In this document: piece after piece, positions 3,345 through 18,765 of the stretch
Numbering within the stretch: the first letter of the stretch is position 1
Layout: every line of letters starts with the position of its first letter
NCBI GenBank assembly: GCA_963754235.1
Contig: CAVWFK010000036.1
Location: forward strand, 1-64,000
Source: an uncultured Alphaproteobacteria bacterium
GTDB taxonomy: Bacteria > Pseudomonadota > Alphaproteobacteria > Acetobacterales > Acetobacteraceae
Length of the DNA stretch: 64,000 nucleotides
Direction: 5' to 3'
The notes under the pieces: generated by a model
Database searches by the model: none
Seen by the model: only the letters and a program-made list of their open reading frames with translations
Told to the model about the DNA's origin: nothing
Program-made: the position numbers and the translations under genes

Positions 3345-4129
3345 GCCACGTCCTCCGCCAGCGGCAGATCGAACAGCAGGCCGTGGATGCGCCGCGCGAG
3401 CCGGCCGATTGTGGGATCGTCGGCGCCGCGATGGCGAAACCCGTCCGAGTTCAGCTCGGCGCGCACGCGCCCCGGATGCGGCGACAGCACCAGGATGCGC
3501 GAGCCGATCAGCACCGCCTCCTCGATCGAGTGGGTGACGAACATCACGGTGAAGCGGAGCTGGTCCCACAGACCCATCAGCTCTTCCTGCATGGTGCGGC
3601 GGGTGAGCGCGTCGAGCGCCGCGAAGGGTTCGTCCATCAGCAGGATGTCGGGTGCCATCGCCATCGCCCGCGCGATCGCGACCCGCATCTTCATCCCCCC
3701 CGAGAGCATGTGCGGATAGGCGTCCGCGAACTTGGCAAGCTGCACCTTCTCCAGGATTGCCATCGCGCGGTCGCTGGCGTCGCGGCCGCGGAAGCGCCCG
3801 CTCGCGCGCATCGGGAACAGCACGTTGCCGAGTACCGTCTTCCACGGCATCAGTTGCTCGAACTCCTGGAACACCATCATCCGGTCCGGGCCGGGGCGCA
3901 CGACCGGCCGGCCGCGCAGCGCGATGCTGCCCTCGGCGGGCGCCATGAAGCCGCCGATCGCCTTCAGCAGTGTCGATTTGCCGCACCCGGAGGGGCCGAG
4001 GATCACGAACCGATCACCCGCCTCGACGGTCAGATCGACGCGCCAGGTCGCGGTGACCAGATCGTTCGGGGTCTTGTATTGCAGCGTCAGGCCGCGAACT
4101 TCGAGCAGCGGACTAGCCTCGGGCTGCAT
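3341..4129 (-). CDS. ABC transporter ATP-binding protein (NitT/TauT family)
   Basis: Walker A 'GPSGCGKST', signature 'LSGGMKMRVAIARA', Walker B 'ILLMDEPFAALD'. Start chosen at the internal 'MQPEASPLLEVRGL'. Confidence 0.85.
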   Translation of the reverse strand: MQPEASPLLEVRGLTLQYKTPNDLVTATWRVDLTVEAGDRFVILGPSGCGKSTLLKAIGGFMAPAEGSIALRGRPVVRPGPDRMMVFQEFEQLMPWKTVLGNVLFPMRASGRFRGRDASDRAMAILEKVQLAKFADAYPHMLSGGMKMRVAIARAMAMAPDILLMDEPFAALDALTRRTMQEELMGLWDQLRFTVMFVTHSIEEAVLIGSRILVLSPHPGRVRAELNSDGFRHRGADDPTIGRLARRIHGLLFDLPLAEDVA

Positions 4130-4137
4130 CGCGCCGC

Positions 4138-5151
4138 TCAGTCGCCCTTCAGCTCGCTCGCGGTTGAAGAAAAAAACACGTCTCGCCATGATCCGGGCGC
4201 ATGCGGGATCAGGCCCTGCTTTGCCATGAACGCGGCGAAGACGCCGATCTTGTGCGGATCGAGCGTCCAATGGTTCTCGGAATCCTTGAGGATTTTCACT
4301 ACATCGGCCTCAGAGAGCGCGGATGCTTTCTGCGTCTTCAGGTAGATCTGCGCCGCCTCGTCGGGGTGCTCGCGAATGAACGCTTCCGCCTGCCGCAACG
4401 CGGCCATGAAGGCCGCCACGACCTTCGGGTTCTTCTCCACGAAGCGGTTCGTCGCCCAGATGCAGTTGAAGGTGTGCGGCCCGCCCAGCACGTCGTCGCT
4501 GCTGAGCACGCGATGCACGTTCGGATGCTGCAGCTCCTCGTACATGTACGGGGCCGAGGTGAAGTGCGCGGTGATCCCCGCCTTGCCGCTCAGCATCGCC
4601 GCCATTCCGTCCGGATGCGACATCGACACGGTGAGCCTGTCGAGCTTGTGCGCGTTCGCCTCTCCGAACGCCTTGGCCGCCGCCATTTGCAGGATGATCG
4701 CCTGGATCGACACGCGCGCCGCCGGCAGCGCGATGCGGTCCTTGTCGGTGAAGCCGGCGATCGTATGCACGTTCGGGTCGATGGTATTCAGGTAGAGCGG
4801 CATCGAATTGAGCGCGGAGAGGCCCTTGACGTCGAGATTGCCGTGCGTGCGCGCCCAGATCACCAGCATCGGCGCGACCCCGCCCGACGCGAAATCCAGA
4901 TTGCCGGAGATCAGCGCCTCGTTCATCGCGGCACCGCCGGTGAAGCGCAGCCAATGCGTGGTGATGGCGACACCGCGTTGCTTGCCTTGCGTTTCCAGCA
5001 GGTTCTGCGCGCGCATCACAGTCAGCGGCAGGTAGGAAAGCCCGTATTCCTGCGCGAGCCTTACATTGACCGCCCGCGCCGAGGGCACGCCCGCCGCCAG
5101 CGTCGCGAGTGCGATGCCGAGTGCGGACAAGACCTGGCCGAGACGTCCCAT
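4138..5151 (-). CDS. ABC transporter periplasmic substrate-binding protein (NMT1/SsuA/TauA-like)
   Basis: Signal peptide 'MGRLGQVLSALGIALATLAAGVPSARA', 337 aa, SsuA/NitT-type fold features. Confidence 0.8.
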   Translation of the reverse strand: MGRLGQVLSALGIALATLAAGVPSARAVNVRLAQEYGLSYLPLTVMRAQNLLETQGKQRGVAITTHWLRFTGGAAMNEALISGNLDFASGGVAPMLVIWARTHGNLDVKGLSALNSMPLYLNTIDPNVHTIAGFTDKDRIALPAARVSIQAIILQMAAAKAFGEANAHKLDRLTVSMSHPDGMAAMLSGKAGITAHFTSAPYMYEELQHPNVHRVLSSDDVLGGPHTFNCIWATNRFVEKNPKVVAAFMAALRQAEAFIREHPDEAAQIYLKTQKASALSEADVVKILKDSENHWTLDPHKIGVFAAFMAKQGLIPHAPGSWRDVFFSSTASELKGD

Positions 5152-5962: not shown

Positions 5963-6256
5963 CAGCGGCGCGGGACGGGGCGAGAGCCGCGCCTGAAAGT
6001 CCTGCAATTCGGCCTCCAGAAGCCGCACCCGCCGCTCGGCCAGGTGCGCGCGCCGGCGCTGCACGAGGGCACTGCCCCAGACCACCAGCGCGCCCAGCAG
6101 CAGGCCGATCGCCAACCCCGCCAGCACCGCGAACGAGAGCGGCGCCTGCATCGCGAAATCGGTCGGCCAGAAGCCGAGCTGCACCGGCTGCGGGTTCGAC
6201 AGCGCGAACACGACCAGGATCAGCAGCACCGGAAACAGCACGATCATGCGCAACAC
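5945..6256 (-). CDS. LapA/DUF1049-family inner-membrane protein
   Basis: Two-TM small protein 'MLRMIVLFPVLLILVVFALS..'. Sits in the conserved position between ihfB and pyrF. Confidence 0.65.
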   Translation of the reverse strand: MLRMIVLFPVLLILVVFALSNPQPVQLGFWPTDFAMQAPLSFAVLAGLAIGLLLGALVVWGSALVQRRRAHLAERRVRLLEAELQDFQARLSPRPAPLPPPDA

Positions 6257-6271
6257 GATGGATAGCCCCGA

Positions 6272-6598
6272 TCAGGCGCTCGCGCGCTCCAGCCGTGCCG
6301 CGCCGCGCGGCTTGCCGCGATTGACCCGCTCGCGCAGTTCCTTGCCGGCCTTGAAGAACGGCACCATCTTCTCGTCAACCGGCACCGCCTCGCCGGTGCG
6401 CGGATTGCGCCCGGTGCGGGCGCCGCGACGCTTGACGGTGAAGGCGCCGAAGCCGCGCAACTCGACACGGTCGCCGCGCGAGAGGGCGGCGCCGATCTCG
6501 CTGAACACGGTGGCGACGATGGTCTCGACATCGGCCCCGCGCAGATGCGGGTTGGCGGCGGCGAGTTCCGCGATCAACTCGGACCTGGTCATCGTCAT
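6272..6598 (-). CDS. ihfB: integration host factor subunit beta
   Basis: '[44 protein letters not shown]..'. Confidence 0.85.
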
Positions 6599-7536
6599 TC
6601 TGCCCCCGGCCCCGAAGGCTGCCAAAGCGCCAGCGGCAAGTCAAGCATAAGTGATTGCAGCGCAACACTTTTGTCAAGGGCGCTGCCGAGCAGGGCGGGC
6701 AGGAGACTGGCCCGGACCGAGGCGAGCCAGCCTCGCTTCGGCGCCACCTTGCGCATCGGCAGCGCGGCCGGGACCGCCTTCGTGCGCGCGAGCCACGCCC
6801 GCGCCGACGGCTCGCCCCCGATCGCATCGACCAGCCCCAGCGCCAGTGCCTGCCGGCCGGTATAGGCGCGCCCGTCCGCGAGCCGCCGCACCCGGGCCGG
6901 ATCCATGTGCCGGCCGGTCGCGACCATGACCACGAACTGGTCGTAGAGATCGTCCACGATGCCTTGCAGCACCTTCTGCCCCGCCGGGCTGGTCGGGTGC
7001 AGGGGGCTCGGCTGGTCCTTGAGCGGCCCGGAGACCAGCGTGTCGGTGGTGATGCCGAGCTTGCCCAGCAGGCCCGAGACCTCGCCGGTTGCCATCAGCA
7101 CGCCGATCGAGCCGGTGAGCGTGCCTTCGCGGGCGAAGATGCGCGCCGCCGGCACCGCGACCATGTAGCCGGCCGAGGCGGCGAGCCCGCCCATCACCGC
7201 GACCACCGGCTTGACCTTCGCCACGCTCGCGATCGCGTCGTGCAACGCCTGCCCGCCGGCGACACTGCCGCCAGGACTGTCGATCGCCACGATCAGCGCC
7301 ACCGCATGGCGGTCGGTCGCGAGGGCGCCCACGCGGGCGTCGAGTGCGTCGTCCTCGGTGATGAGACCGTTGACCGCGAGCCGCGCGACGTAGCGCCCCT
7401 CCCCGGCGGCGCCGCCCAGCCGCACGAACGCGACCAGCAGCGCCGCGGCCACCGCCAGCACGGCGACGATCTGCCATGCGGCGAGACGGCGCTTGAGGCG
7501 CTGCCGCTCGCTCAGCAGATCGGCCGTGAACGGCAT
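6595..7536 (-). CDS. sppA: signal peptide peptidase SppA (36K type)
   Basis: 313 aa, N-terminal TM segment, '[11 protein letters not shown]' serine-protease motif. Confidence 0.85.
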
Positions 7537-9637: not shown

Positions 9638-10042
9638 ATGCCCGATGAGGCGATGCACCGCCTTCTGGACTATGATCGCCGGCGATATTGGCTGGTAAAC
9701 GGTTGGTGCATCCGCTTCCGGGTCGCCGAGGTCGCGGCCACCGCGGCGAGGCCGCACGGCATCAAGTACGCCCTTACGCTGCATGACATAGACGGAACAC
9801 GACTGCTGGGACTCGACAACGCGCACGGCGTCCCGCGTGCGCAGGCCTATGACCACCGGCATCGTTTCCGGCGGGCGGCGGAACCGATCCCTTACGATTT
9901 CCGAGGCGCGGACGAGTTGATCTGCGACTTCTTCGCCGCTGTCGAGCAAGCCTGCAAGCAGGAAGGCGTGCCATTCGAGTTTGAAGCGGAAGACGCTGAG
10001 TTGGAGATGGAGGGCAACGATGACGCGAACGTCCCTGACTGA
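9638..10042 (+). CDS. hypothetical protein, possible toxin component (DUF6516/TumE-like?) of a two-gene cassette
   Basis: ATG preceded by an AT-rich patch 'acatatctttgcttgatatattttgcc'. 'MPDEAMHRLLDYDRRRYWLVNGWCIRFRV..' has mixed composition. Overlaps the next gene by 23 nt. Confidence 0.45.
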   Translation: MPDEAMHRLLDYDRRRYWLVNGWCIRFRVAEVAATAARPHGIKYALTLHDIDGTRLLGLDNAHGVPRAQAYDHRHRFRRAAEPIPYDFRGADELICDFFAAVEQACKQEGVPFEFEAEDAELEMEGNDDANVPD

Positions 10043-10376
10043 GTTGCGGGAGGAGATGCGGGGTGTGACGCGTGGCGAGCGGCAGGCTTCGTCGCTCCCT
10101 GCGGCGCCGCTGCTCGCTGCGCTGTCTCGGGACGCGCTCGACTTGTTGGGCGTCCTGCTGCGGGAACGGCCTGCGAGCGTGACCGAGCTGGTGGCGCTGA
10201 CAGGGCGGGCGCAGCCAAATGTATCCCGGTCGCTGCAATTGCTCGCGAGGCACCGCCTGATCCGATTGGTGCGGGAAGGGCGCGAAGTCAGGCCGGAGCC
10301 GATCGCAAGCGCGGTACGGGTGGACTTGGCGACCGGCACCTATGAGACAACGCCGGCATCGGCAGCGGCGGCCTGA
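10020..10376 (+). CDS. winged-helix (MarR-like) DNA-binding protein, possible antitoxin or regulator
   Basis: '..VTELVALTGRAQPNVSRSLQLLARHRLIRLVREGREV..' HTH. Confidence 0.5.
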   Translation: MTRTSLTELREEMRGVTRGERQASSLPAAPLLAALSRDALDLLGVLLRERPASVTELVALTGRAQPNVSRSLQLLARHRLIRLVREGREVRPEPIASAVRVDLATGTYETTPASAAAA

Positions 10377-10393
10377 CTACCGGGCGCGGCGGC

Positions 10394-10624
10394 TCAGTCG
10401 CCCGCCGAGGCGATCCGGACCCGCGGCTCGGGCCGCACCGCATCCCGCACGGCTTCCTGCCAGTCCTTCGCCAGCGCCGGGTCGGCCGGTGATCCGTCAT
10501 CGAGCAGCGCCATGCCACCGAGCAGCGCGCCGAGCTGGTCGGACCCAGCCAGCGCGTACTGCCGTTCGAGGAACAGCACCATCGCCCGGTAGGCCTGCTC
10601 GGCGGTCAAAGTGGTCTTGCTCAT
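10394..10624 (-). CDS. hypothetical small protein (76 aa), possible immunity or antitoxin partner
   Basis: 'MSKTTLTAEQAYRAMVLFLERQYALAG..'. ATGA overlap with the upstream 103-aa gene. Confidence 0.4.
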   Translation of the reverse strand: MSKTTLTAEQAYRAMVLFLERQYALAGSDQLGALLGGMALLDDGSPADPALAKDWQEAVRDAVRPEPRVRIASAGD

Positions 10625-10932
10625 CGGTCCTCCCGGCGTGGCCGCAGCAGAGCGAGACCACTGCTCGGCGCAAAGTTTCGCGGCTGCGCGTTGACCCCGC
10701 CATTCACGATCTGGCCCGCCCTCGTCTTAACCCAGATTTGGGAGCCGTCGGACCGGTTGCGACCATACCACGCGTTGCCGTACCTGTCCGTGCCTCGAAA
10801 GACGGCGGCATCATTCGCCACCTCCACCAGCAACGCGCGGTTCTCCGGCGTGTCCGGGAGATGTCCCAGATCGGCGCGAAAGATGCGCCGCAACCGACCG
10901 GCGCTCTCGCTCGGCAGCGCGATGGCCGGCAT
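10621..10932 (-). CDS. hypothetical protein (103 aa), possible toxin-like
   Basis: '..FRGTDRYGNAWYGRNRSDGSQIWVKTRAGQIVNGGVN..', globular composition. No family recognised confidently. Confidence 0.4.
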   Translation of the reverse strand: MPAIALPSESAGRLRRIFRADLGHLPDTPENRALLVEVANDAAVFRGTDRYGNAWYGRNRSDGSQIWVKTRAGQIVNGGVNAQPRNFAPSSGLALLRPRREDR

Positions 10933-10955
10933 GGCAGATCGCTCAGCCGGCAGGG

Positions 10956-11612
10956 CTAGCGCCCCACCCCGCCCAGCCGCTCCCGCACAATCGCGAGCGC
11001 CGCGGCGTACGCGGCCTCCGGGTCGAGCGCCGTCGTGTCCAGCGTCACCGCGTCCGGCGCCGGCCGCAAAGGAGCCGCGGTGCGGGTGCGGTCCTGCTCG
11101 TCGCGCAGCGCGATCTCCGCCTCCACCTCCGCGAGCGGCACCGCGATCCCGCGCGCGGCAAGCTCGCGCCAGCGGCGCCGGGCGCGCACGGCGGCGCTCG
11201 CGGTCACGAACAGCTTCACCGCGGCGTCGGGAAACACGACCGTTCCAACGTCGCGCCCGTCCAGCACGGCGCCCCGCCCGGCCCCGAAGCCGCGCTGAAA
11301 TTCGAGCAGGGCCGCGCGCACCGCCGGCATCGCCGCGACCAGGCTCGACGCGCGATCGGCCTCGGGCCCGCGCAAGTCGGACCGTTCGAGATCGGCGGGA
11401 TCGAGCGCACGCGCCGCCGCCGCGGCCGCCGCCGCATCGGCCGGATCGCCGCCCGCGTCCAGCACCCGCCGTCCGACCGCCCGATACAACAGCCCGGTAT
11501 CGAGATGCGGCAGCCCGAGCTCGGCCGCGAGCCGCCGCGCCAGCGTGCCCTTCCCGGACGCGGCCGGCCCGTCGATCGCGATCATCGGCGCGATCACCGG
11601 CGGGCGGGTCAC
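10956..11612 (-). CDS. cmk: cytidylate kinase
   Basis: '[13 protein letters not shown]..' P-loop, 218 aa. 4-nt overlap with aroA. Confidence 0.9.
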
Positions 11613-12946
11613 GCGAACGCCGCCCCCAGACCCTCCATCAGTGCCAGGAAGCCCGGAAAGCTGGTGTCGATGAAGCCGGTGTCGTCCACGCGCACCGCCG
11701 CGCGCGACGCGAGCCCCAGCACCAGCGCACTCATCGCGAGCCGATGATCCATTTGCGTCGCGACCAGGCCGCCGCCGGGCGGGGCGCCGTCGCAGCCCTC
11801 GATCACGAGATCGTCGCCCTCGATTGCGACCCGCACCCCGTTTGCCGCGAGCATCGCGGCCGTCGCGGCGAGCCGGTCGCTCTCCTTCACGCGCAGCTCG
11901 CGCAGGCCCCGCAGCCGCGTCGTCCCCCGCGCGCAGGCGGCGGCGACGGCCAGGATCGGGTATTCGTCGATCATGCTCGGCGCCCGCTCCCAGGGCACGT
12001 CGATCGCGCGCAAGCCGCTATGGCTCACCACCAGATCGCCCACCGTCTCGCCGCCTTCGAGGCGCGCGCCCGAGACCGTGATTGCCGCCCCCATCTCCCG
12101 TAGGCAATCCAGCAGCCCGGTCCGCAGCGGATTGAGGCCGATGCCCTCCAGTGTCACCCGCGACCCCTCCACCAGCAGCCCCGCCACCAACGGGAACGCC
12201 GCAGAAGACGGATCGCCCGGCACGATCACGTCGCGCGCGCGCAACTCGGGCTGGCCGCGCAGCCGGATCACCCGGCCCCGCTCGCCGACCGTCTCCACCG
12301 CGATCTCGGCGCCGAAATGGCGCAGCATGTTCTCGCTGTGATCGCGCGTCGCCTCCGGCTCTTCGACGCGGGTTTCGCCGGGCGCGTTCAGCCCGGCCAG
12401 CAGCACCGCCGACTTCACCTGCGCCGAGGGCACCGGCACACGATAATCAAACGGCAGCGCCTCGCGCGCGCCCTCGATCGCGAGCGGCAGGCGCCCGCCA
12501 TCGCGGCCGGCGAAGCGGGCGCCGCAGGCAGCGAGCGGGTCGGTCACGCGGCGCATCGGCCGCCGTCGCAGGCTCGCGTCGCCGGTCATCACCGCGAACA
12601 GGTCGTGGCTCGCCAGGATGCCGCAGAGCAGCCGCGCGGCGGTGCCGGAATTGCCCATGTCCAGCACGTCTTTGGGCTCCGCCAGCCCCCCGATGCCGCG
12701 CCCGGCCACCAGCCAGTCGCCGCCCGGCCGGCACGCGACCTCGGCGCCGAGCGCACGCATGGCGGCCGCCGTGCGCAGCACGTCCTCGCCCTCCAGCAGC
12801 CCGGTGATGCGCGTCTCTCCGACCGCGAGTGCCCCGATCATCAGCGCGCGATGGCTGATCGACTTGTCGCCCGGCACGCGGATGCGCCCGGCGAGCGGCC
12901 GGGCCGGGCGGGAGGCGGCGAGCGGACGGGCGGGCATCGCGGACAT
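11609..12946 (-). CDS. aroA: 3-phosphoshikimate 1-carboxyvinyltransferase
   Basis: '..[22 protein letters not shown]..'. Start ambiguous because of in-frame ATGs inside the upstream tandem repeat. Confidence 0.9.
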
Positions 12947-12997
12947 GGACGGGTCAGGGCGCATGGACGGGTCAGGGCGCATGGACGGGTCAGGGCG
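12944..12997. repeat. 18-bp tandem repeat x3 encoding (RPDPSM)3 at the aroA 5' end
   Basis: 'catggacgggtcagggcg' x3. Each unit carries an in-frame ATG. Confidence 0.7.
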
Positions 12998-13119
12998 CTT
13001 AGCATCCCTCGCGGCGGTTTGACAGGCGAGCAGGCTGCGACGTTTGACAGTCACGCAGGCCGGTGGCATGGCCGCGCCCTCCGCCGGCCCGGCCGGCGTT
13101 GCGCGAAAGATCCCGCCCG

Positions 13120-13490: not shown

Positions 13491-13904
13491 ATGCCCAAGC
13501 TGAATCGCATCGTCGAAACCGCCCTCTATGTTGATGACCTGGAACATGCGGCGCATTTCTACGAATCGAAGCTGGGGCTGGAGCCGCTGCGGAAGGCGGA
13601 GACGCTGTTCGCGTACGACGTCGGCGGGTCGAGCGTTCTGCTGCTTTTCAAACGGGGGGGATCACGGCGAACGCAGACGCTGCCGGGCGGCACAATCCCG
13701 CCGCACGACGGCTCCGGCCCGATCCATATGTGCTTCGCCATCGACGCTGAAGAACTGCCGCGATGGGAAGCCCGCCTTGAAGAACAAGGTATGGAGATTG
13801 AAGGCCGCACGACATGGGATCGCGGCGGGAAGAGCATCTATTTTCGTGATCCGGACGGTCACCTGCTCGAAATGATGACGCCGGGGACGTGGCGGATCTA
13901 CTGA
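13491..13904 (+). CDS. VOC family protein (glyoxalase/bleomycin-resistance/dioxygenase fold)
   Basis: 137 aa, 'ALYVDDLEHAAHFYESKLG..YFRDPDGHLLE'. Confidence 0.75.
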   Translation: MPKLNRIVETALYVDDLEHAAHFYESKLGLEPLRKAETLFAYDVGGSSVLLLFKRGGSRRTQTLPGGTIPPHDGSGPIHMCFAIDAEELPRWEARLEEQGMEIEGRTTWDRGGKSIYFRDPDGHLLEMMTPGTWRIY

Positions 13905-13917
13905 GGGCGCGGCTTCG

Positions 13918-15342
13918 ATGGCGAATTTCGCATTCGAGGGGCAGACCTGGAGCTCTCCAGTCATTACCTGGAGCTTCGAGGACCAGACGTATCCCACCGA
14001 TGCGCGCACGCCGTTCTCGGAGCCAATCTCCAGTCCCTATCAGGCGACTGTGCTCGCCGCGCTGGCGCGCTGGCAGGGGGTCTCCGGCATCGCCTTCGAA
14101 CAGGTGGCGGACAGCCCCAACCCGTCGCAGGCGGCCGACATCCGGATCGGCTTCGCCGCGTTGCCCGGCAGCACTGAGATCGGCGAGACCGATCTGACGC
14201 GGGCACCCGACGGCACCAATTTCCTGCCCGACGTGCTGGTCCGGCTGGAGGATCCGGCATTCGATCCGCTGTTCTCCGACTCCAGCGGCGCGCTCACCTA
14301 CCAGGGCACCGCGACCACGCTCTACCAGGTGGCGCTGCACGAGATCGGCCACGCGCTCGGCCTCAACCATTCCACCGACCCGCACGCCGTGATGTTTCCC
14401 ACCGTCGGGCCGGACAATCCCGACCTCGACGGCTCCGACATCGCCGGCATCGACGTCCTCTATCCGCCGACGGCTCCGCCACCGCCGCCGCCGCCCGTAG
14501 TCGCGGCGGGCAGCCTCTATACCGATGGCGGCCAGAGTGCGGCGATCACCACCGGAACTGGCGCCAATACCGTGGTCGGCTCGGTCGGCAACGACACCAT
14601 CACCACCGGCACCGGCACCAACCTGATCGGCCCCGGCAGCGGCAACGATCTGATCGTCTCGAACGGCGCCGACACGATCTTCCCCGGCGGCGGCTCGAAC
14701 ACCGTGTTCGCGGCCGGGCACGTGCTGGCGGCGGTCGGCGCCAGCACGCTCTTCTTCATCAACGGCAGCCAGAGCAGCACCGTGCTCGGCGGCGGCGCCG
14801 GCAATGCGGTGATCAACGGCGGCGTGGGCGGCGGATTGTTCGCAGCCGGCGCGGGCGGCGGCAGCGTGATCTTCGCCGGTGCCGGCGCGAGCACCATCTT
14901 CGGCGCGGCCAGTGGCGACGTGCTGTTCGCCGGCGGTAGCGCCCCCGACCTGCTGCTCGCCGGCGCCGGCAACGAGACCCTCTCCGGCCTCGGCTCCAGC
15001 GGCGCCAACCAGCTTTACGGCGGCAGCGGCAACGATCTGATCGGCGGCGGGGCGGGGCCCGAAAGCTTCTTCGCCGGCACCGGCAACGACACCTTCATCG
15101 CCGGCAGCGGCGCCGATCTCTATGCATTCAGCAACGGCGCCGCGGGCGGGCAGGATCTGATCGAGGGGTTCAACCAGGGCAAGGGCGATCTGGTGAGCCT
15201 GCAAGGCTACGCCGCGGGTGCCGCCGCGGCGGCGGTCGCCGGGCAGGCCGCCTCGGCTGCCGGCACTACGCTCACGCTCGCCGACAACACCACGATCACC
15301 TTCGCCGGTGTCGGACACCTCTCCACGTCCGCCTTCGCCTGA
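13918..15342 (+). CDS. secreted zinc metalloprotease, matrixin/serralysin-like (M10) domain plus C-terminal RTX repeats
   Basis: 'HEIGHALGLNH' with Met-turn 'AVMFP'. Poly-Pro linker. Gly-rich 'GGSGNDLIGGGAG', 'AGTGNDTFIAGSGAD' beta-roll repeats. The uncleaved hydrophobic C-terminus is typical of T1SS cargo. Confidence 0.8.
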   Translation: MANFAFEGQTWSSPVITWSFEDQTYPTDARTPFSEPISSPYQATVLAALARWQGVSGIAFEQVADSPNPSQAADIRIGFAALPGSTEIGETDLTRAPDGTNFLPDVLVRLEDPAFDPLFSDSSGALTYQGTATTLYQVALHEIGHALGLNHSTDPHAVMFPTVGPDNPDLDGSDIAGIDVLYPPTAPPPPPPPVVAAGSLYTDGGQSAAITTGTGANTVVGSVGNDTITTGTGTNLIGPGSGNDLIVSNGADTIFPGGGSNTVFAAGHVLAAVGASTLFFINGSQSSTVLGGGAGNAVINGGVGGGLFAAGAGGGSVIFAGAGASTIFGAASGDVLFAGGSAPDLLLAGAGNETLSGLGSSGANQLYGGSGNDLIGGGAGPESFFAGTGNDTFIAGSGADLYAFSNGAAGGQDLIEGFNQGKGDLVSLQGYAAGAAAAAVAGQAASAAGTTLTLADNTTITFAGVGHLSTSAFA

Positions 15343-15369
15343 CCGACAAGGCCGGCAGGAGGTAAAGAC

Positions 15370-15771
15370 ATGCGTGCGATTCCGCTGGGAGTGAAGGGAA
15401 GCTTCACGCTCGCCGTCGCGCCCGCGCACTTGGCCAACCAGTTCAAGGATGCCACGCTGCCGCCGGTGCTGGCGACTCCCATGATGATCCTGGCGATGGA
15501 GAATGCGGCGCTCAACGCCATTCGCGACTATCTGGAACCCGGCGAGAGTGCCGTCGGCACGGCGGTCGATATCCGCCACCTCGCGGCGACGCCGGTCGGG
15601 CAGCGCGTGACGGCAGAGGCGGAAGTCATCAAGGTCGAAGGCCGACGGATCGTCTTCGCAGTAACCGCACGTGACGAGGTCGAGGACATCGGCAGGGGCA
15701 TCCATGAACGGATGGTGGTCGACGTCCACCGCGTAACACAGCGCCTGAACGCTAAGAGCAATCGGGGATAG
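15370..15771 (+). CDS. hotdog-fold thioesterase family protein
   Basis: 133 aa, 4HBT/FlK-like '..RRIVFAVTARDEVEDIGRGIHERMVV..'. Confidence 0.7.
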   Translation: MRAIPLGVKGSFTLAVAPAHLANQFKDATLPPVLATPMMILAMENAALNAIRDYLEPGESAVGTAVDIRHLAATPVGQRVTAEAEVIKVEGRRIVFAVTARDEVEDIGRGIHERMVVDVHRVTQRLNAKSNRG

Positions 15772-16085
15772 ACGAATTCGTCGATGCCGGTCCCGAACTT
15801 CAGGTCCTCATACAGACGCTCCGCGCCCCGGAGATGCCGCTCATTGCACGGCCAGCGCACAGCCCCCATTTGCAGGATCAACTCGTAGGTCAAGCCCGAA
15901 TAGTCGCACGGCCGGCCCTTCGACACCTTGCGCCATTCCTCGAACGCATCCCTGGGCTCCGTGAAGGGGATCAGCGGGGCTCCGTCGCGATCCTTGAAGT
16001 CCAACTTATTGGCCACCTCTACCTTCTCGATCGCATCGTACCGTGACCATTCGAGTCCGTTCCCCTCGCGTTCAGAAACCCAGAC
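15772..16085 (-). pseudogene. relic of a molybdopterin (Mo-bisPGD) oxidoreductase C-terminal domain (assimilatory nitrate reductase/formate dehydrogenase-like)
   Basis: Minus frame 'RDAFEEWRKVSKGRPCDYSGLTYELILQMGAVRWPCNERHLRGAERLYEDLKFGTGIDEFVYP' with GC3 about 85%. No start or stop; both flanks run into the antisense of neighbouring genes. Confidence 0.5.
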
Positions 16086-16089
16086 CCGC

Positions 16090-16095
16090 AAGGAG
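16090..16095 (+). promoter_or_regulatory. Shine-Dalgarno AAGGAG upstream of the DyP GTG start
   Basis: 'gcAAGGAGcgacgcGTG'. Confidence 0.5.
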
Positions 16096-16101
16096 CGACG
16101 C

Positions 16102-17148
16102 GTGCCATCCACAATTCCGCAACCGGTCGTCGCGCAGCTCACCCGCGCCGCTATTTTTCTCGTCGTGACGGTGAACTCCGGGCCGGGACATGATGTCACC
16201 GTGCGGACCTTGTGTGGTGATGTGGCTGCTCTTTTGCGCGCCGTGGGCTTCCGTGCCCTCGACGGTCGGCTGTCATGTGTCATGGGGCTTGGCTCCGACG
16301 CATGGGACCGGCTCTTCGGTGTGCCGAAGCCGAAAGAATTGCATCCGTTCCGTGAAATCCGCGGCCGGCATCACGCCGTCGCTACGCCGGGCGACATCCT
16401 CTTTCATATCCGCGCCACGCGTATGGATCTGTGCTTCGAACTGGCGACACAGATCATGTCGCGGCTGAGCGGCGCAGTCTCCACGGTGGACGAAGTGCAT
16501 GGCTTCAACTACTTCGATGATCGTGACCTGATCGGTTTCGTGGACGGGACGGAGAACCCCGTGGAGCAGGCGGCGATTGACGCCACCATCATCGGCGAGG
16601 AGGATGCGGCGTTTGCCGGTGGGAGTTACGCGATCGTACAAAAGTACGTTCATGACCTAAAGGGATGGAACGCGCTGCCCGTTGAGGAGCAAGAGAGAAT
16701 TATCGGCAGACTCAAGCTGTCCGACATCGAACTGGACGATAGCGTGAAGCCAACCTCCGCGCACAATGCCTTGACGACGATTATTGAAGACGGAAAACAG
16801 CTGGAGATCGTGCGCGACAACATGCCGTTCGGCGACGTGGGGAAGGGGGAGTTCGGTACCTATTTCATCGGTTATGCCCGCTCCCCGCGGCGGATCGAGC
16901 AGATGCTCGTGAACATGTTTGTCGGCCGGCCAGCCGGCAACTATGACCGGCTTTTGGATTTCAGCCGCGCCGTCACTGGCACGCTGTTTTTTGTGCCGTC
17001 CGCGACGTTTCTGGAGAATGTGGTGGCCGCCGGGGGCGCGGCTCCAGCGATGACCGGCCCGCCTGCGAACGGAGGTGAGGCGGAGGCCAAATCCGTCCCC
17101 GGATGGTTCACTCGGAATCGGCTCGCTGAAGAACAGAGGCAAGACATG
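16102..17148 (+). CDS. DyP-type peroxidase (DypB-like encapsulin cargo), C-terminal cargo-loading peptide out of frame
   Basis: GTG start. Strong similarity along the DyP domain ('..FVDGTENP..GGSYAIVQKYVHDL..DNMPFGDVG..GTYFIGYA..GTLFFVPS'). The targeting peptide 'DGSLGIGSLKNRGKT*' is encoded in the +1 frame at about 17102-17148, with TGA overlapping the encapsulin ATG. As written, the frame reads through into the encapsulin. Confidence 0.8.
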
Positions 17149-17952
17149 AACAATCTCCATCGGGAACTCGCCCCGATCTCCGATAAGGCATGGGAGCAGA
17201 TCGAAGAGGAGGCGTCGCGCACCCTCAAGCGCCACTTGGCGGCGCGGCGTGTCGTGGACGTGCTGGGCCCGAAGGGTCCCGAATTGTCGGCGGTCGGCAC
17301 CGGCCACCTCCGGCAGATCACGACGCCGGGCGATGGAATCCAAGCTGCGGCACGCGAGGCGAGGGCGCTCGTGGAATTGCGCGTTCCGTTCGATCTGACG
17401 CGCCAGGCGATTGACGATGTAGAGCGCGGCGCACTGGATTCAGACTGGTCGCCACTGAAGGTCGCGGCACGCAAAATTGCCTTCGCCGAAGACCACGCTG
17501 TCTTCGAAGGCTATGCCCCTGGGCAGATTCAGGGTTTCCGTCAAGGCACCAGCAACCCGACTTTGATGCTCCCGGCGGATGCGTGGAACTATCCGGATAC
17601 GGTCGCGCAGGCGGTAAGCCAATTACGCCTCGCCGGCGTCGATGGTCCCTATGTGCTCGTGCTGGGCGCCAATCCGTACACTGCAATCAGCGGAGCCAGT
17701 GCTGAGGGCTATCCGGTTCTGGAGCACATCCGGCGTCTCGTGGAGGGAGAGATCGTTTGGGCCCCAGCCATCGAGGGAGGTTTGGTACTGACCACCCGCG
17801 GCGGTGATTTTGAGTTGCACATCGGTCAGGACATCTCTATCGGTTACCTGAACCATTCTGAAGCCCTTGTTCAACTGTACCTGCAGGAAACCTTCGCGTT
17901 CCTGCTGCTGACAGCGGAAGCGTCCGTAATGCTCGCACCCCCGGAAAAATGA
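17146..17952 (+). CDS. family 1 encapsulin nanocompartment shell protein
   Basis: 'MNNLHRELAPISDKAWEQIEEEASRTLK..' 268 aa, HK97-fold encapsulin. Confidence 0.9.
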   Translation: MNNLHRELAPISDKAWEQIEEEASRTLKRHLAARRVVDVLGPKGPELSAVGTGHLRQITTPGDGIQAAAREARALVELRVPFDLTRQAIDDVERGALDSDWSPLKVAARKIAFAEDHAVFEGYAPGQIQGFRQGTSNPTLMLPADAWNYPDTVAQAVSQLRLAGVDGPYVLVLGANPYTAISGASAEGYPVLEHIRRLVEGEIVWAPAIEGGLVLTTRGGDFELHIGQDISIGYLNHSEALVQLYLQETFAFLLLTAEASVMLAPPEK

Positions 17953-18006
17953 ACGGTCGGAGCATTTGCCTGACACCACAACGATGACCTTGTTCGCGGC
18001 AGCCCC

Positions 18007-18765
18007 TCACGCTCCTTGGCGCTTGACCGTGAGCGGGCCGGACGCCTGGCAGGTGGGCATCACCTCCAGCCGGTTGACGTTCACCCGCGCCGGCAGCGAA
18101 ATGACCCAGGCGACCGTCTCGGCGATGTCCTCGGGCGTCAGCGGGTCGGCCCCGGCGTAGAAGGCGCGCGCCCGTTCAAGGTCGCCGCCGAAGCGGACGG
18201 CGCTGAACTCGGTGCCGCCGACCAGCCCCGGTTCCAGATCGGTCACGCGCACGCCGGTCCCCACCAAATCGGCGCGCAGGTTGAGGCTGAACTGCCGCAC
18301 GAACGCCTTCGACGCGCCGTACACGTGCCCGCCCGGATACGGGTAGGTGCCGGCCGTGCTGCCGATGTTCACCACGTGCCCGCGATCGCGCGCGACCATG
18401 CCGGGCAGCAGCGCGCGCGTGACGTGCAGCAGGCCCAGCACATTGACCTCCACCATCCGGTCCCAATCCGCGAGCTTGGCCACCGGGGCCGGATCGAGGC
18501 CGAGGCCAAGGCCCGCGTTGTTGACCAGCACATCGACCTCGCGCCAACCCTCGGGCAGGCTTTCGGGCAGCGCCGCGACGGCGTCGTGCTCGGTCACGTC
18601 GAGCGCGAACGGGAGGAAACGCACGCCCAGCTCGCGGCCGAGCGCTTCCAGCCGGTCCAGCCGCCGGGCGGCGCCGATCACGCGCTGCCCGTCGGCCACG
18701 AGACGGCGCGCGATCGCTGTGCCGAACCCGGCGCTGGCGCCGGTGACCAGGATGGTGCGGGTCAC
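18007..18765 (-). CDS. SDR family NAD(P)-dependent oxidoreductase (YdfG-like)
   Basis: 'ILVTGASAGFGTAIARRL', 'YGASKAF'. GTG start overlaps the ohr stop. Confidence 0.8.
   Translation of the reverse strand: MTRTILVTGASAGFGTAIARRLVADGQRVIGAARRLDRLEALGRELGVRFLPFALDVTEHDAVAALPESLPEGWREVDVLVNNAGLGLGLDPAPVAKLADWDRMVEVNVLGLLHVTRALLPGMVARDRGHVVNIGSTAGTYPYPGGHVYGASKAFVRQFSLNLRADLVGTGVRVTDLEPGLVGGTEFSAVRFGGDLERARAFYAGADPLTPEDIAETVAWVISLPARVNVNRLEVMPTCQASGPLTVKRQGA

Follow-up and report, generated by a model that had tools for sequence, protein, structure and literature searches.

A probable internal fragment of a NapA/NasC-like molybdenum oxidoreductase gene within a putatively imported DyP-encapsulin block

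An oxidoreductase partner conserved beside DyP-encapsulin operons is described on enterobacterial mobile elements, where such operons carry a formate dehydrogenase (FDH) gene upstream of that for the DyP-type peroxidase, together with RpoH (Jones et al. 2024, PMC10960027); this FDH is without a targeting peptide, and so is not cargo (PMC10960027). A large encapsulin survey gives SDRs, cupins, DUF1345, 6-PGD and DAPDC as the accessories of DyP operons, with Flp and cytochrome fusions as the only fusions (PMC8346489). No link between a molybdopterin enzyme and DyP-encapsulin was found in the literature that we searched. Here, we consider a locus in a 64-kb stretch of DNA (the whole of which was analysed, and is referred to below as the window), where a piece of a Mo-bisPGD oxidoreductase gene lies directly upstream of a DyP gene. 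We also consider the wider neighbourhood to which it points, in which an intact version of the same gene sits beside DyP, and which appears to be undescribed within the limits of the encapsulin literature searched.

The reading that we prefer, and hold to be very likely, is that the piece represents a non-coding internal fragment of a cytoplasmic NapA/NasC-like Mo gene: the truncated partner within a horizontally acquired block. The features of the block are collected in Table 1. The M10/RTX protease, thioesterase, DyP and encapsulin genes all lie on the plus strand, and it is the minus strand of the gap between the thioesterase and DyP genes that translates to ...SRYDAIEKVEVANKLDFKDRDGAPLIPFTEPRDAFEEWRKVSKGRPCDYSGLTYELILQMGAVRWPCNERHLRGAERLYEDLKFGTGIDEF..., exactly the peptide quoted in an earlier, sequence-only reading of this DNA.

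Table 1. Features of the thioesterase to encapsulin block (positions in the window)
Feature	Position	Strand	Remarks
FlK-type (hotdog) thioesterase, intact	15370..15771	plus	Pfam PF22636, E 8e-37; stop abuts the 3' end of the relic
Relic core	15774..16022	minus	83 codons, VEVANKLDF...KFGTGIDE; corresponds to residues ~458-540 in an intact Mo-bisPGD oxidoreductase of 778 aa
Possible degenerate 5' continuation of the relic	16023..16046	minus	SRYDAIEK against consensus ARSDFDIV
DyP upstream spacer	16023..16101	plus	Shine-Dalgarno AAGGAG at 16090-16095
DyP-type peroxidase frame	16102..17145	plus	Pfam Dyp_perox_N, Dyp_perox_C; C-terminal linker frameshift ~17070-17100, through which the frame continues into the encapsulin gene
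Encapsulin-targeting peptide (DGSLGIGSLKNRGKT, then stop)	17102..17149	plus	+1 frame relative to the DyP body; three-frame translation
Family 1 encapsulin shell gene (MNNLHRELAPIS...)	17146..17952	plus	Pfam Linocin_M18 (PF04454), E 1e-93

When ten intact homologues were searched against the window with tblastn, a single match was returned (E 1e-39 to 2e-44); no other piece of the Mo gene was found in the 64 kb, with everything else at E > 0.04. A GC-rich open frame might give such a match by chance or through its composition, or the frame might merely shadow an overlapping gene; this has to be considered, as long spurious ORFs are common in a window of ~70% GC and as Pfam returned no match, but it is a possibility that we regard as vanishingly small: tblastn E values reach ~1e-44, amino-acid identity is 80-89% over 82 residues to dozens of intact oxidoreductases of ~780 aa, nucleotide identity to the homologues is ~80%, and on neither strand does 15774-16022 overlap a gene, annotated or predicted. 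The want of a Pfam match for the enclosing 251-codon (251-aa) minus-strand ORF arises because the relic sits in the interval that separates PF00384 from PF01568. The sequence-only reading, which saw here the footprint of a nitrate-reductase-like gene that has been destroyed, is in that respect upheld by the tblastn comparison and by alignment to intact genes, with both ends of the gene missing. Shortened at both ends relative to its intact homologues, and with no complementary fragments in 64 kb, the relic is an ordinary gene remnant, or pseudogene fragment.

Relatives were drawn from a scan of one genome per species, which yielded 386, and the best 39 of these (62-89% identity over the fragment) were analysed. 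These best 39 are MAGs of Alphaproteobacteria (Acetobacteraceae, Reyranella, Roseiarcus, Pseudolabrys and Bradyrhizobium), Acidobacteriota, Nitrospira, Verrucomicrobiales and Mycetohabitans; the match almost always falls inside an open frame of ~780-850 codons, with ~500 codons before it and ~200 after. A word-indexed protein search with the fragment also returned 11 short proteins, raising the suspicion of many relics sharing one breakpoint. This was rejected: of the short-protein matches, one stems from a palindrome created in assembly where a contig ends (L082), one is on a contig that holds several pieces of a split Mo gene, and others are partial genes at contig ends. In the first of these (ERZ27258874 k141_190574) the segment coding for ERLYEDLRF is repeated in inverted form at the 3' end, an assembly artefact by which protein P0003 had seemed to share the 3' breakpoint of the window.

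In a representative intact protein (L002, 778 aa), Molybdop_Fe4S4 occupies residues 17-65, Molybdopterin (PF00384) 75-501 and Molydop_binding (PF01568) 625-732. Judged by alignment, the relic covers the closing part of the Molybdopterin domain and the stretch that links it to Molydop_binding, and not the C-terminal domain; the earlier assignment to a 'conserved C-terminal region' and PF01568 cannot be sustained, since residues ~453-540 lie well short of 625-732. In agreement, a phmmer search of the PDB matched the relic to residues 500-558 of Desulfovibrio desulfuricans NapA (E 2e-5), and NCBIfam matched it to positions 510-566 of 708 in NasC (E 9e-12), followed by NasA and Fdh-alpha. As to the remainder of the enzyme, no sequence matching the 4Fe-4S cysteine motif (PF04879; residues 17-65 in the intact homologue) was found by tblastn anywhere in the window, and the same search shows the Mo-ligand cysteine region (as aligned to D. 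desulfuricans NapA) to be absent from it. Pfam finds no PF00384 in the relic ORF, where only the last ~45 residues of the domain could overlap, and for PF01568 there is neither a Pfam match nor a tblastn piece, the relic stopping at around residue 540. Deprived of the Fe-S cluster motif, of the cysteine that ligates Mo and of both pterin-binding domains, the relic is unable to make an enzyme.

Both ends of the fragment are sharply defined. In a column-wise nucleotide comparison with 23 homologues, identity across 15774-16022 runs from 0.57 to 0.94, and is mostly at least 0.74 (sliding 15-nt windows), then drops abruptly on either side. At the 3' end, homology halts 3-6 nt past the thioesterase stop codon (15769-15771), and at the 5' end it falls ~55-80 nt short of the DyP GTG start (16102). 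The relic is strictly intergenic, and its ends are not overprinted by the neighbouring genes, as had been supposed. The extent of 15772-16085 first given to it does contain the homology, but overshoots at the right by ~40-60 nt, the core ending at 16022 or perhaps at 16046; the eight residues encoded by 16023-16046 are included in some tblastn matches, with a nucleotide identity of only 0.3-0.5.

The spacer between the relic core and the DyP start has no nucleotide similarity to the Mo gene over 16023-16101 (shuffle p 0.68-0.97), and bears a weak resemblance to the sequence ahead of DyP in loci L009 and L018 (p 0.01-0.02). Its Shine-Dalgarno and start region align with those of DyP relatives, as do the N-terminal codons of the gene at the nucleotide level, and the spacer is probably what remains of DyP's own 5' region. 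A further extension of the relic into the start of DyP, to 16127 by tblastn, was rejected, as it consists of conserved PQPVV codons of DyP and the Shine-Dalgarno region. Elsewhere, an upstream element of ~120 nt is conserved ahead of DyP in L009 (~12966-13090), L007 and L018; it contains the inverted repeat TGAGC-N7-GCTCA, a possible operator, and is largely missing from the window, where a weak match of ~28 nt is seen at ~16028-16055. A perfect 12-nt palindrome, GACGAATTCGTC, with an EcoRI site within it, lies at 15771-15782, exactly at the junction of the thioesterase stop and the relic, its right half forming the last two relic codons; this may reflect fold-back repair, or may be chance.

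Within its limits the fragment is undamaged. The 82-codon core has a GC3 of 0.83, close to the 'about 85%' previously noted as coding-like, and an overall GC of 0.62, and when aligned with the intact genes over 82 codons it shows no stops and no indels. From its nearest neighbour it differs by ~29.5 synonymous and 12.5 non-synonymous changes, giving a pN/pS of 0.123 as against 0.016-0.41 for nearest-neighbour pairs of intact genes, and it has four private amino-acid states (K6, D8, L44 and L64) where intact genes have between zero and seven. By these measures (pN/pS, stops and indels) no relaxation of constraint is detectable, relative to a nearest sampled relative that is only 83% identical in DNA, a distance at which a short neutral period would be invisible. 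As the coding signature is undamaged, the truncation would be recent relative to the divergence from every sampled homologue; we suggest that the Mo gene was probably truncated recently, and that nearly all of the divergence now seen in the relic would have accumulated during the functional life of the gene. When metagenomes were scanned for another copy of the relic or of its junction, no match exceeded 89% identity and the top matches were all intact genes, and in plasmids no near-identical DNA was seen, only a stand-alone Mesorhizobium DyP at 79%.

An absence of detectable relaxation would be equally expected if the piece were still under selection, which we think unlikely. It could have been kept as a promoter or regulatory region for DyP-encapsulin, as a processing or spacer element, or for a small protein encoded by the 251-codon minus-strand ORF (15528-16283); its coding signature is whole (pN/pS 0.12, four private substitutions), it fills the entire gap between two intact genes, and the near-loss of the native upstream element would leave DyP in need of a replacement promoter unless it is served by read-through. 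However, scans for sigma-70-like promoters and terminators and against Rfam, over 15300-16400 or 15000-18500, gave no match, and no promoter- or terminator-like site was found between the thioesterase and DyP. The ORF, moreover, starts antisense inside DyP and ends 244 nt inside the thioesterase, again antisense, an architecture for which no homologue was found, and conservation of amino-acid coding is the wrong signature for regulation at the level of DNA, for which a recent truncation is the simpler explanation. On these grounds we give a retained function perhaps one chance among many, and return to the relic as a remnant: today it is only a 330-nt spacer separating two genes on the opposite strand, and a transcript running from the thioesterase to DyP probably includes it in antisense, to judge from the orientation of the genes and the lack of consensus signals between them.

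The parent of the relic is predicted to belong to an uncharacterised NapA/NasC-like Mo-bisPGD subfamily, and not to be a bona fide NasA, NapA or Fdh. An intact homologue aligns end-to-end with D. desulfuricans NapA (E 2e-117), but scores far under every NCBIfam equivalog cut-off: 400 bits against 1100 for NasC, 369 against 1000 for NasA, 311 against 904 for NapA, and 462 against 666 for Fdh-alpha (TIGR01591). The Mo-ligand cysteine is kept in the intact homologues, in the motif N-x-D-G-N-x-R-L-C, followed by a residue other than His (Thr), and on plasmids the nearest relatives with an annotation, which share 46-50% identity, carry the name 'nitrate reductase'. It is these observations that lead us to the designation NapA/NasC-like; of the original label, NasA/NapA/Fdh-type, the Mo-bisPGD homology stands, and membership of the named enzymes does not.

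Intact copies of the gene, which are 80-89% identical across phyla in the segment represented by the relic, frequently neighbour DyP. Of 39 genome loci and 16 metagenome loci (L002-L040, L083-L098), 15 and 5, respectively, have a DyP gene within ~2 kb of the intact Mo gene, with or without an encapsulin gene. These 20 of the 55 loci are independent of each other, represent several phyla and show at least four gene orders; many of the loci without this adjacency are short contigs. It was found in soil Alphaproteobacteria, Acidobacteriota and Nitrospira. The order Mo-> <-Enc<-DyP occurs in L007, L009, L011, L012, L084 and L086, and Mo-> <-DyP without encapsulin in L008, L021, L027-29 and L088, while in L002 and L083 the contig ends within the DyP of a Mo-> <-DyP pair. 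Mo->DyP->Enc-> is seen in L020 and L025, DyP->Enc->...Mo-> in L022 and L087, and Enc<-DyP<- ->Hsp20->Mo->thioesterase in an Acidobacteriaceae MAG (L003). The thioesterase of the window likewise has homologues, 74-77% identical, that adjoin an intact Mo gene in two loci, L003 and L086, the latter arranged as <-thioesterase Mo-> <-encapsulin<-DyP. Near more distant Mo homologues (~50% identity, from Actinobacteria and Bacteroidota) no DyP was found, nor is DyP adjacent to a Mo homologue on a Klebsiella plasmid (H23). The Mo-DyP adjacency itself is solid.

The block also stands apart in composition. From thioesterase to encapsulin (15370-17952) its GC content is 61.8%, the minimum among 308 equally long windows (median 69.6%), and the flanking M10/RTX protease and SDR genes are at 70-72.5%; the relic, at 61.5%, is like the module, and its homologues range from 0.53 to 0.66. 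The thioesterase is full length; its DNA is 77% identical to that of the homologue in L003 over a stretch that opens 2 nt ahead of the ATG and closes with the TAG, and an exact-protein look-up returned no record of it. Further upstream, a glyoxalase-family gene (13491-13904) is also low, at 61.1% GC, and the M10/RTX protease gene that intervenes is host-like at 70.1%. The upstream part of the aroA ORF (~12900-13000, minus strand) holds a hexapeptide repeat, (RPDPSM)x3, encoded by an 18-nt tandem repeat that is probably upstream of the true aroA start.

These two sets of observations bear on the proposal of an insertion scar, in which the DyP-encapsulin module would have landed at the site of the relic and, by its arrival, destroyed a resident nitrate-reductase gene. 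Such an event would suit a relic that directly adjoins the 5' region of DyP, and a module that is compositionally foreign. It also predicts the remainder of the gene beyond the insert, and none is present after 17952, to the left of the thioesterase or elsewhere in the 64 kb; the GC content of the relic is that of the island and not of the host (~70%), and the 20 independent loci, in several phyla, show its intact homologues adjoining DyP and encapsulin. We consider an insertion scar very improbable. Given that the intact homologues are habitual neighbours of DyP and encapsulin, and that the GC content of the relic is island-like, the relic would have arrived with the module, and we read it as debris of that imported module. 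With homologues of the thioesterase also adjoining the Mo gene in L003 and L086, the four elements would move as one set, of which the relic is a decayed member.

Building on this, we propose a sequence of events for the locus. A low-GC block comprising thioesterase, Mo gene, DyP and encapsulin would have entered a high-GC genome by horizontal transfer, with the Mo gene of the ancestor most likely divergent from DyP, as in L003; a deletion or rearrangement may then have taken the first ~450 codons of the Mo gene, along with most of the DyP upstream region; and a second event may have taken the last ~240 codons of the Mo gene, right up to the thioesterase stop. No relative with more than 89% amino-acid identity and the ancestral arrangement was found in the genome and metagenome scans, so the order and number of rearrangements are guesswork. 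The orientation of the thioesterase relative to the Mo gene differs from that in L003, and in L086 the thioesterase lies at the opposite end of the Mo gene, so that either an extra event (e.g. an inversion) or an unsampled ancestral arrangement is required. A model of a single inversion from an L003-like order does generate the junction of thioesterase stop and relic, but was rejected, since the 3' fragment of the Mo gene that it predicts upstream of the thioesterase is absent by tblastn.

A second, independent decay of the module was observed in the MAG GCA_963849305.1 (contig CAWKGV010000023.1, locus 9683-13117; L001/L018), where a split katG and an 85-codon N-terminal stump of DyP come after a Mo fragment of 210 codons. 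An IS66 element lies nearby, and upstream there is a xanthine-dehydrogenase-like gene that is disrupted; some of the splitting here may be due to long-read indel errors. In a Nitrospira MAG (L022, ~6167-6969) the encapsulin gene is split, with residues 1-110 and 69-268 in different frames, which is either another frameshifted module or an assembly error.

The DyP and encapsulin genes of the window are themselves irregular. The HK97-fold shell gene (PF04454) lies directly downstream of DyP, and the two form a single ORF of 616 codons (16102-17952), the shift having brought DyP into the frame of encapsulin. Six relatives have LENV and DGSL separated by 72-102 nt, always a multiple of three, with DGSLGIGSLK in frame with DyP; in the window this distance is 91 nt and the GSLxIGSLK motif (17102-17131) is out of frame. 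There is, in addition, a 1-nt insertion after the targeting peptide that is specific to the window. The linker frameshift could be either a real mutation or a sequencing error; if real, cargo targeting would be lost, or a direct fusion formed with an internal restart at the encapsulin ATG. Around 30 other DyP-encapsulin 'fusions' of 600-640 aa (450-1000 aa on a wider count) are present in the protein database (matches P0012-P0037), and among the matches listed all but one are single-sequence clusters. All ten of the junctions inspected look frameshift-derived, with the peptide codons out of frame (e.g. RVRSASDLSKETY-MNNL) or the stop lost after an intact peptide. These 'fusions' are best read as sporadic frameshift products, whether by recurrent mutation or recurrent sequencing error, and not as a conserved fusion lineage.

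The stump of the gene matters little in itself, and should be annotated as a pseudogene fragment, not taken as evidence of nitrate assimilation in this organism. Its value lies more in what it points to, namely a Mo-bisPGD/DyP/encapsulin neighbourhood that crosses phyla and could help in finding the physiological substrate of encapsulated DyP peroxidases; it would also indicate that the module has been acquired by horizontal transfer, and that it decays piecemeal in some hosts, this genome included. By analogy with the enterobacterial operons, we tentatively raise the possibility, which we hold to be rather less than even, that the NapA/NasC-like enzyme is a functional accessory of DyP(-encapsulin) in soil bacteria, a Mo-dependent counterpart of the NAD-dependent FDH. 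Were this so, loss of the Mo gene together with loss of the targeting peptide would describe a whole module in the course of being taken apart, or of being rewired so that DyP is fused directly to encapsulin.

Set against known systems, the intact homologues share their Fe4S4, Molybdopterin and Molydop_binding domains with D. desulfuricans NapA (PDB 2NAP/2JIM) and with assimilatory NasC/NasA, and have a non-His residue after the ligand cysteine, as nitrate reductases do, whereas formate dehydrogenase, as represented by the aligned FdhF, has Cys-His (Cys/Sec-His) at the Mo site in place of their Cys-Thr. Beside the monomeric nitrate reductases of the Mo-bisPGD (DMSO reductase) superfamily, whether cytoplasmic or periplasmic, the copy in the window is an 83-codon stump devoid of any catalytic element. 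It resembles ordinary bacterial pseudogene fragments in being an internal piece without start codon, cofactor parts or partner fragments, lying between intact genes in a horizontally acquired, rearranged region; it differs from them in being unusually clean, with no frameshifts or stops and a substitution pattern indistinguishable from that of intact genes. In the enterobacterial set the partner belongs to the NAD-dependent formate dehydrogenases, those of 2-hydroxyacid dehydrogenase type (as in ORF 4074-4850 of a Klebsiella plasmid copy, L131), and is unrelated to the Mo-bisPGD enzyme, and that set includes RpoH, for which no gene was seen in the window. The likeness between the two is that of an oxidoreductase gene adjoining DyP and encapsulin, here that of a Mo oxidoreductase, and across phyla.
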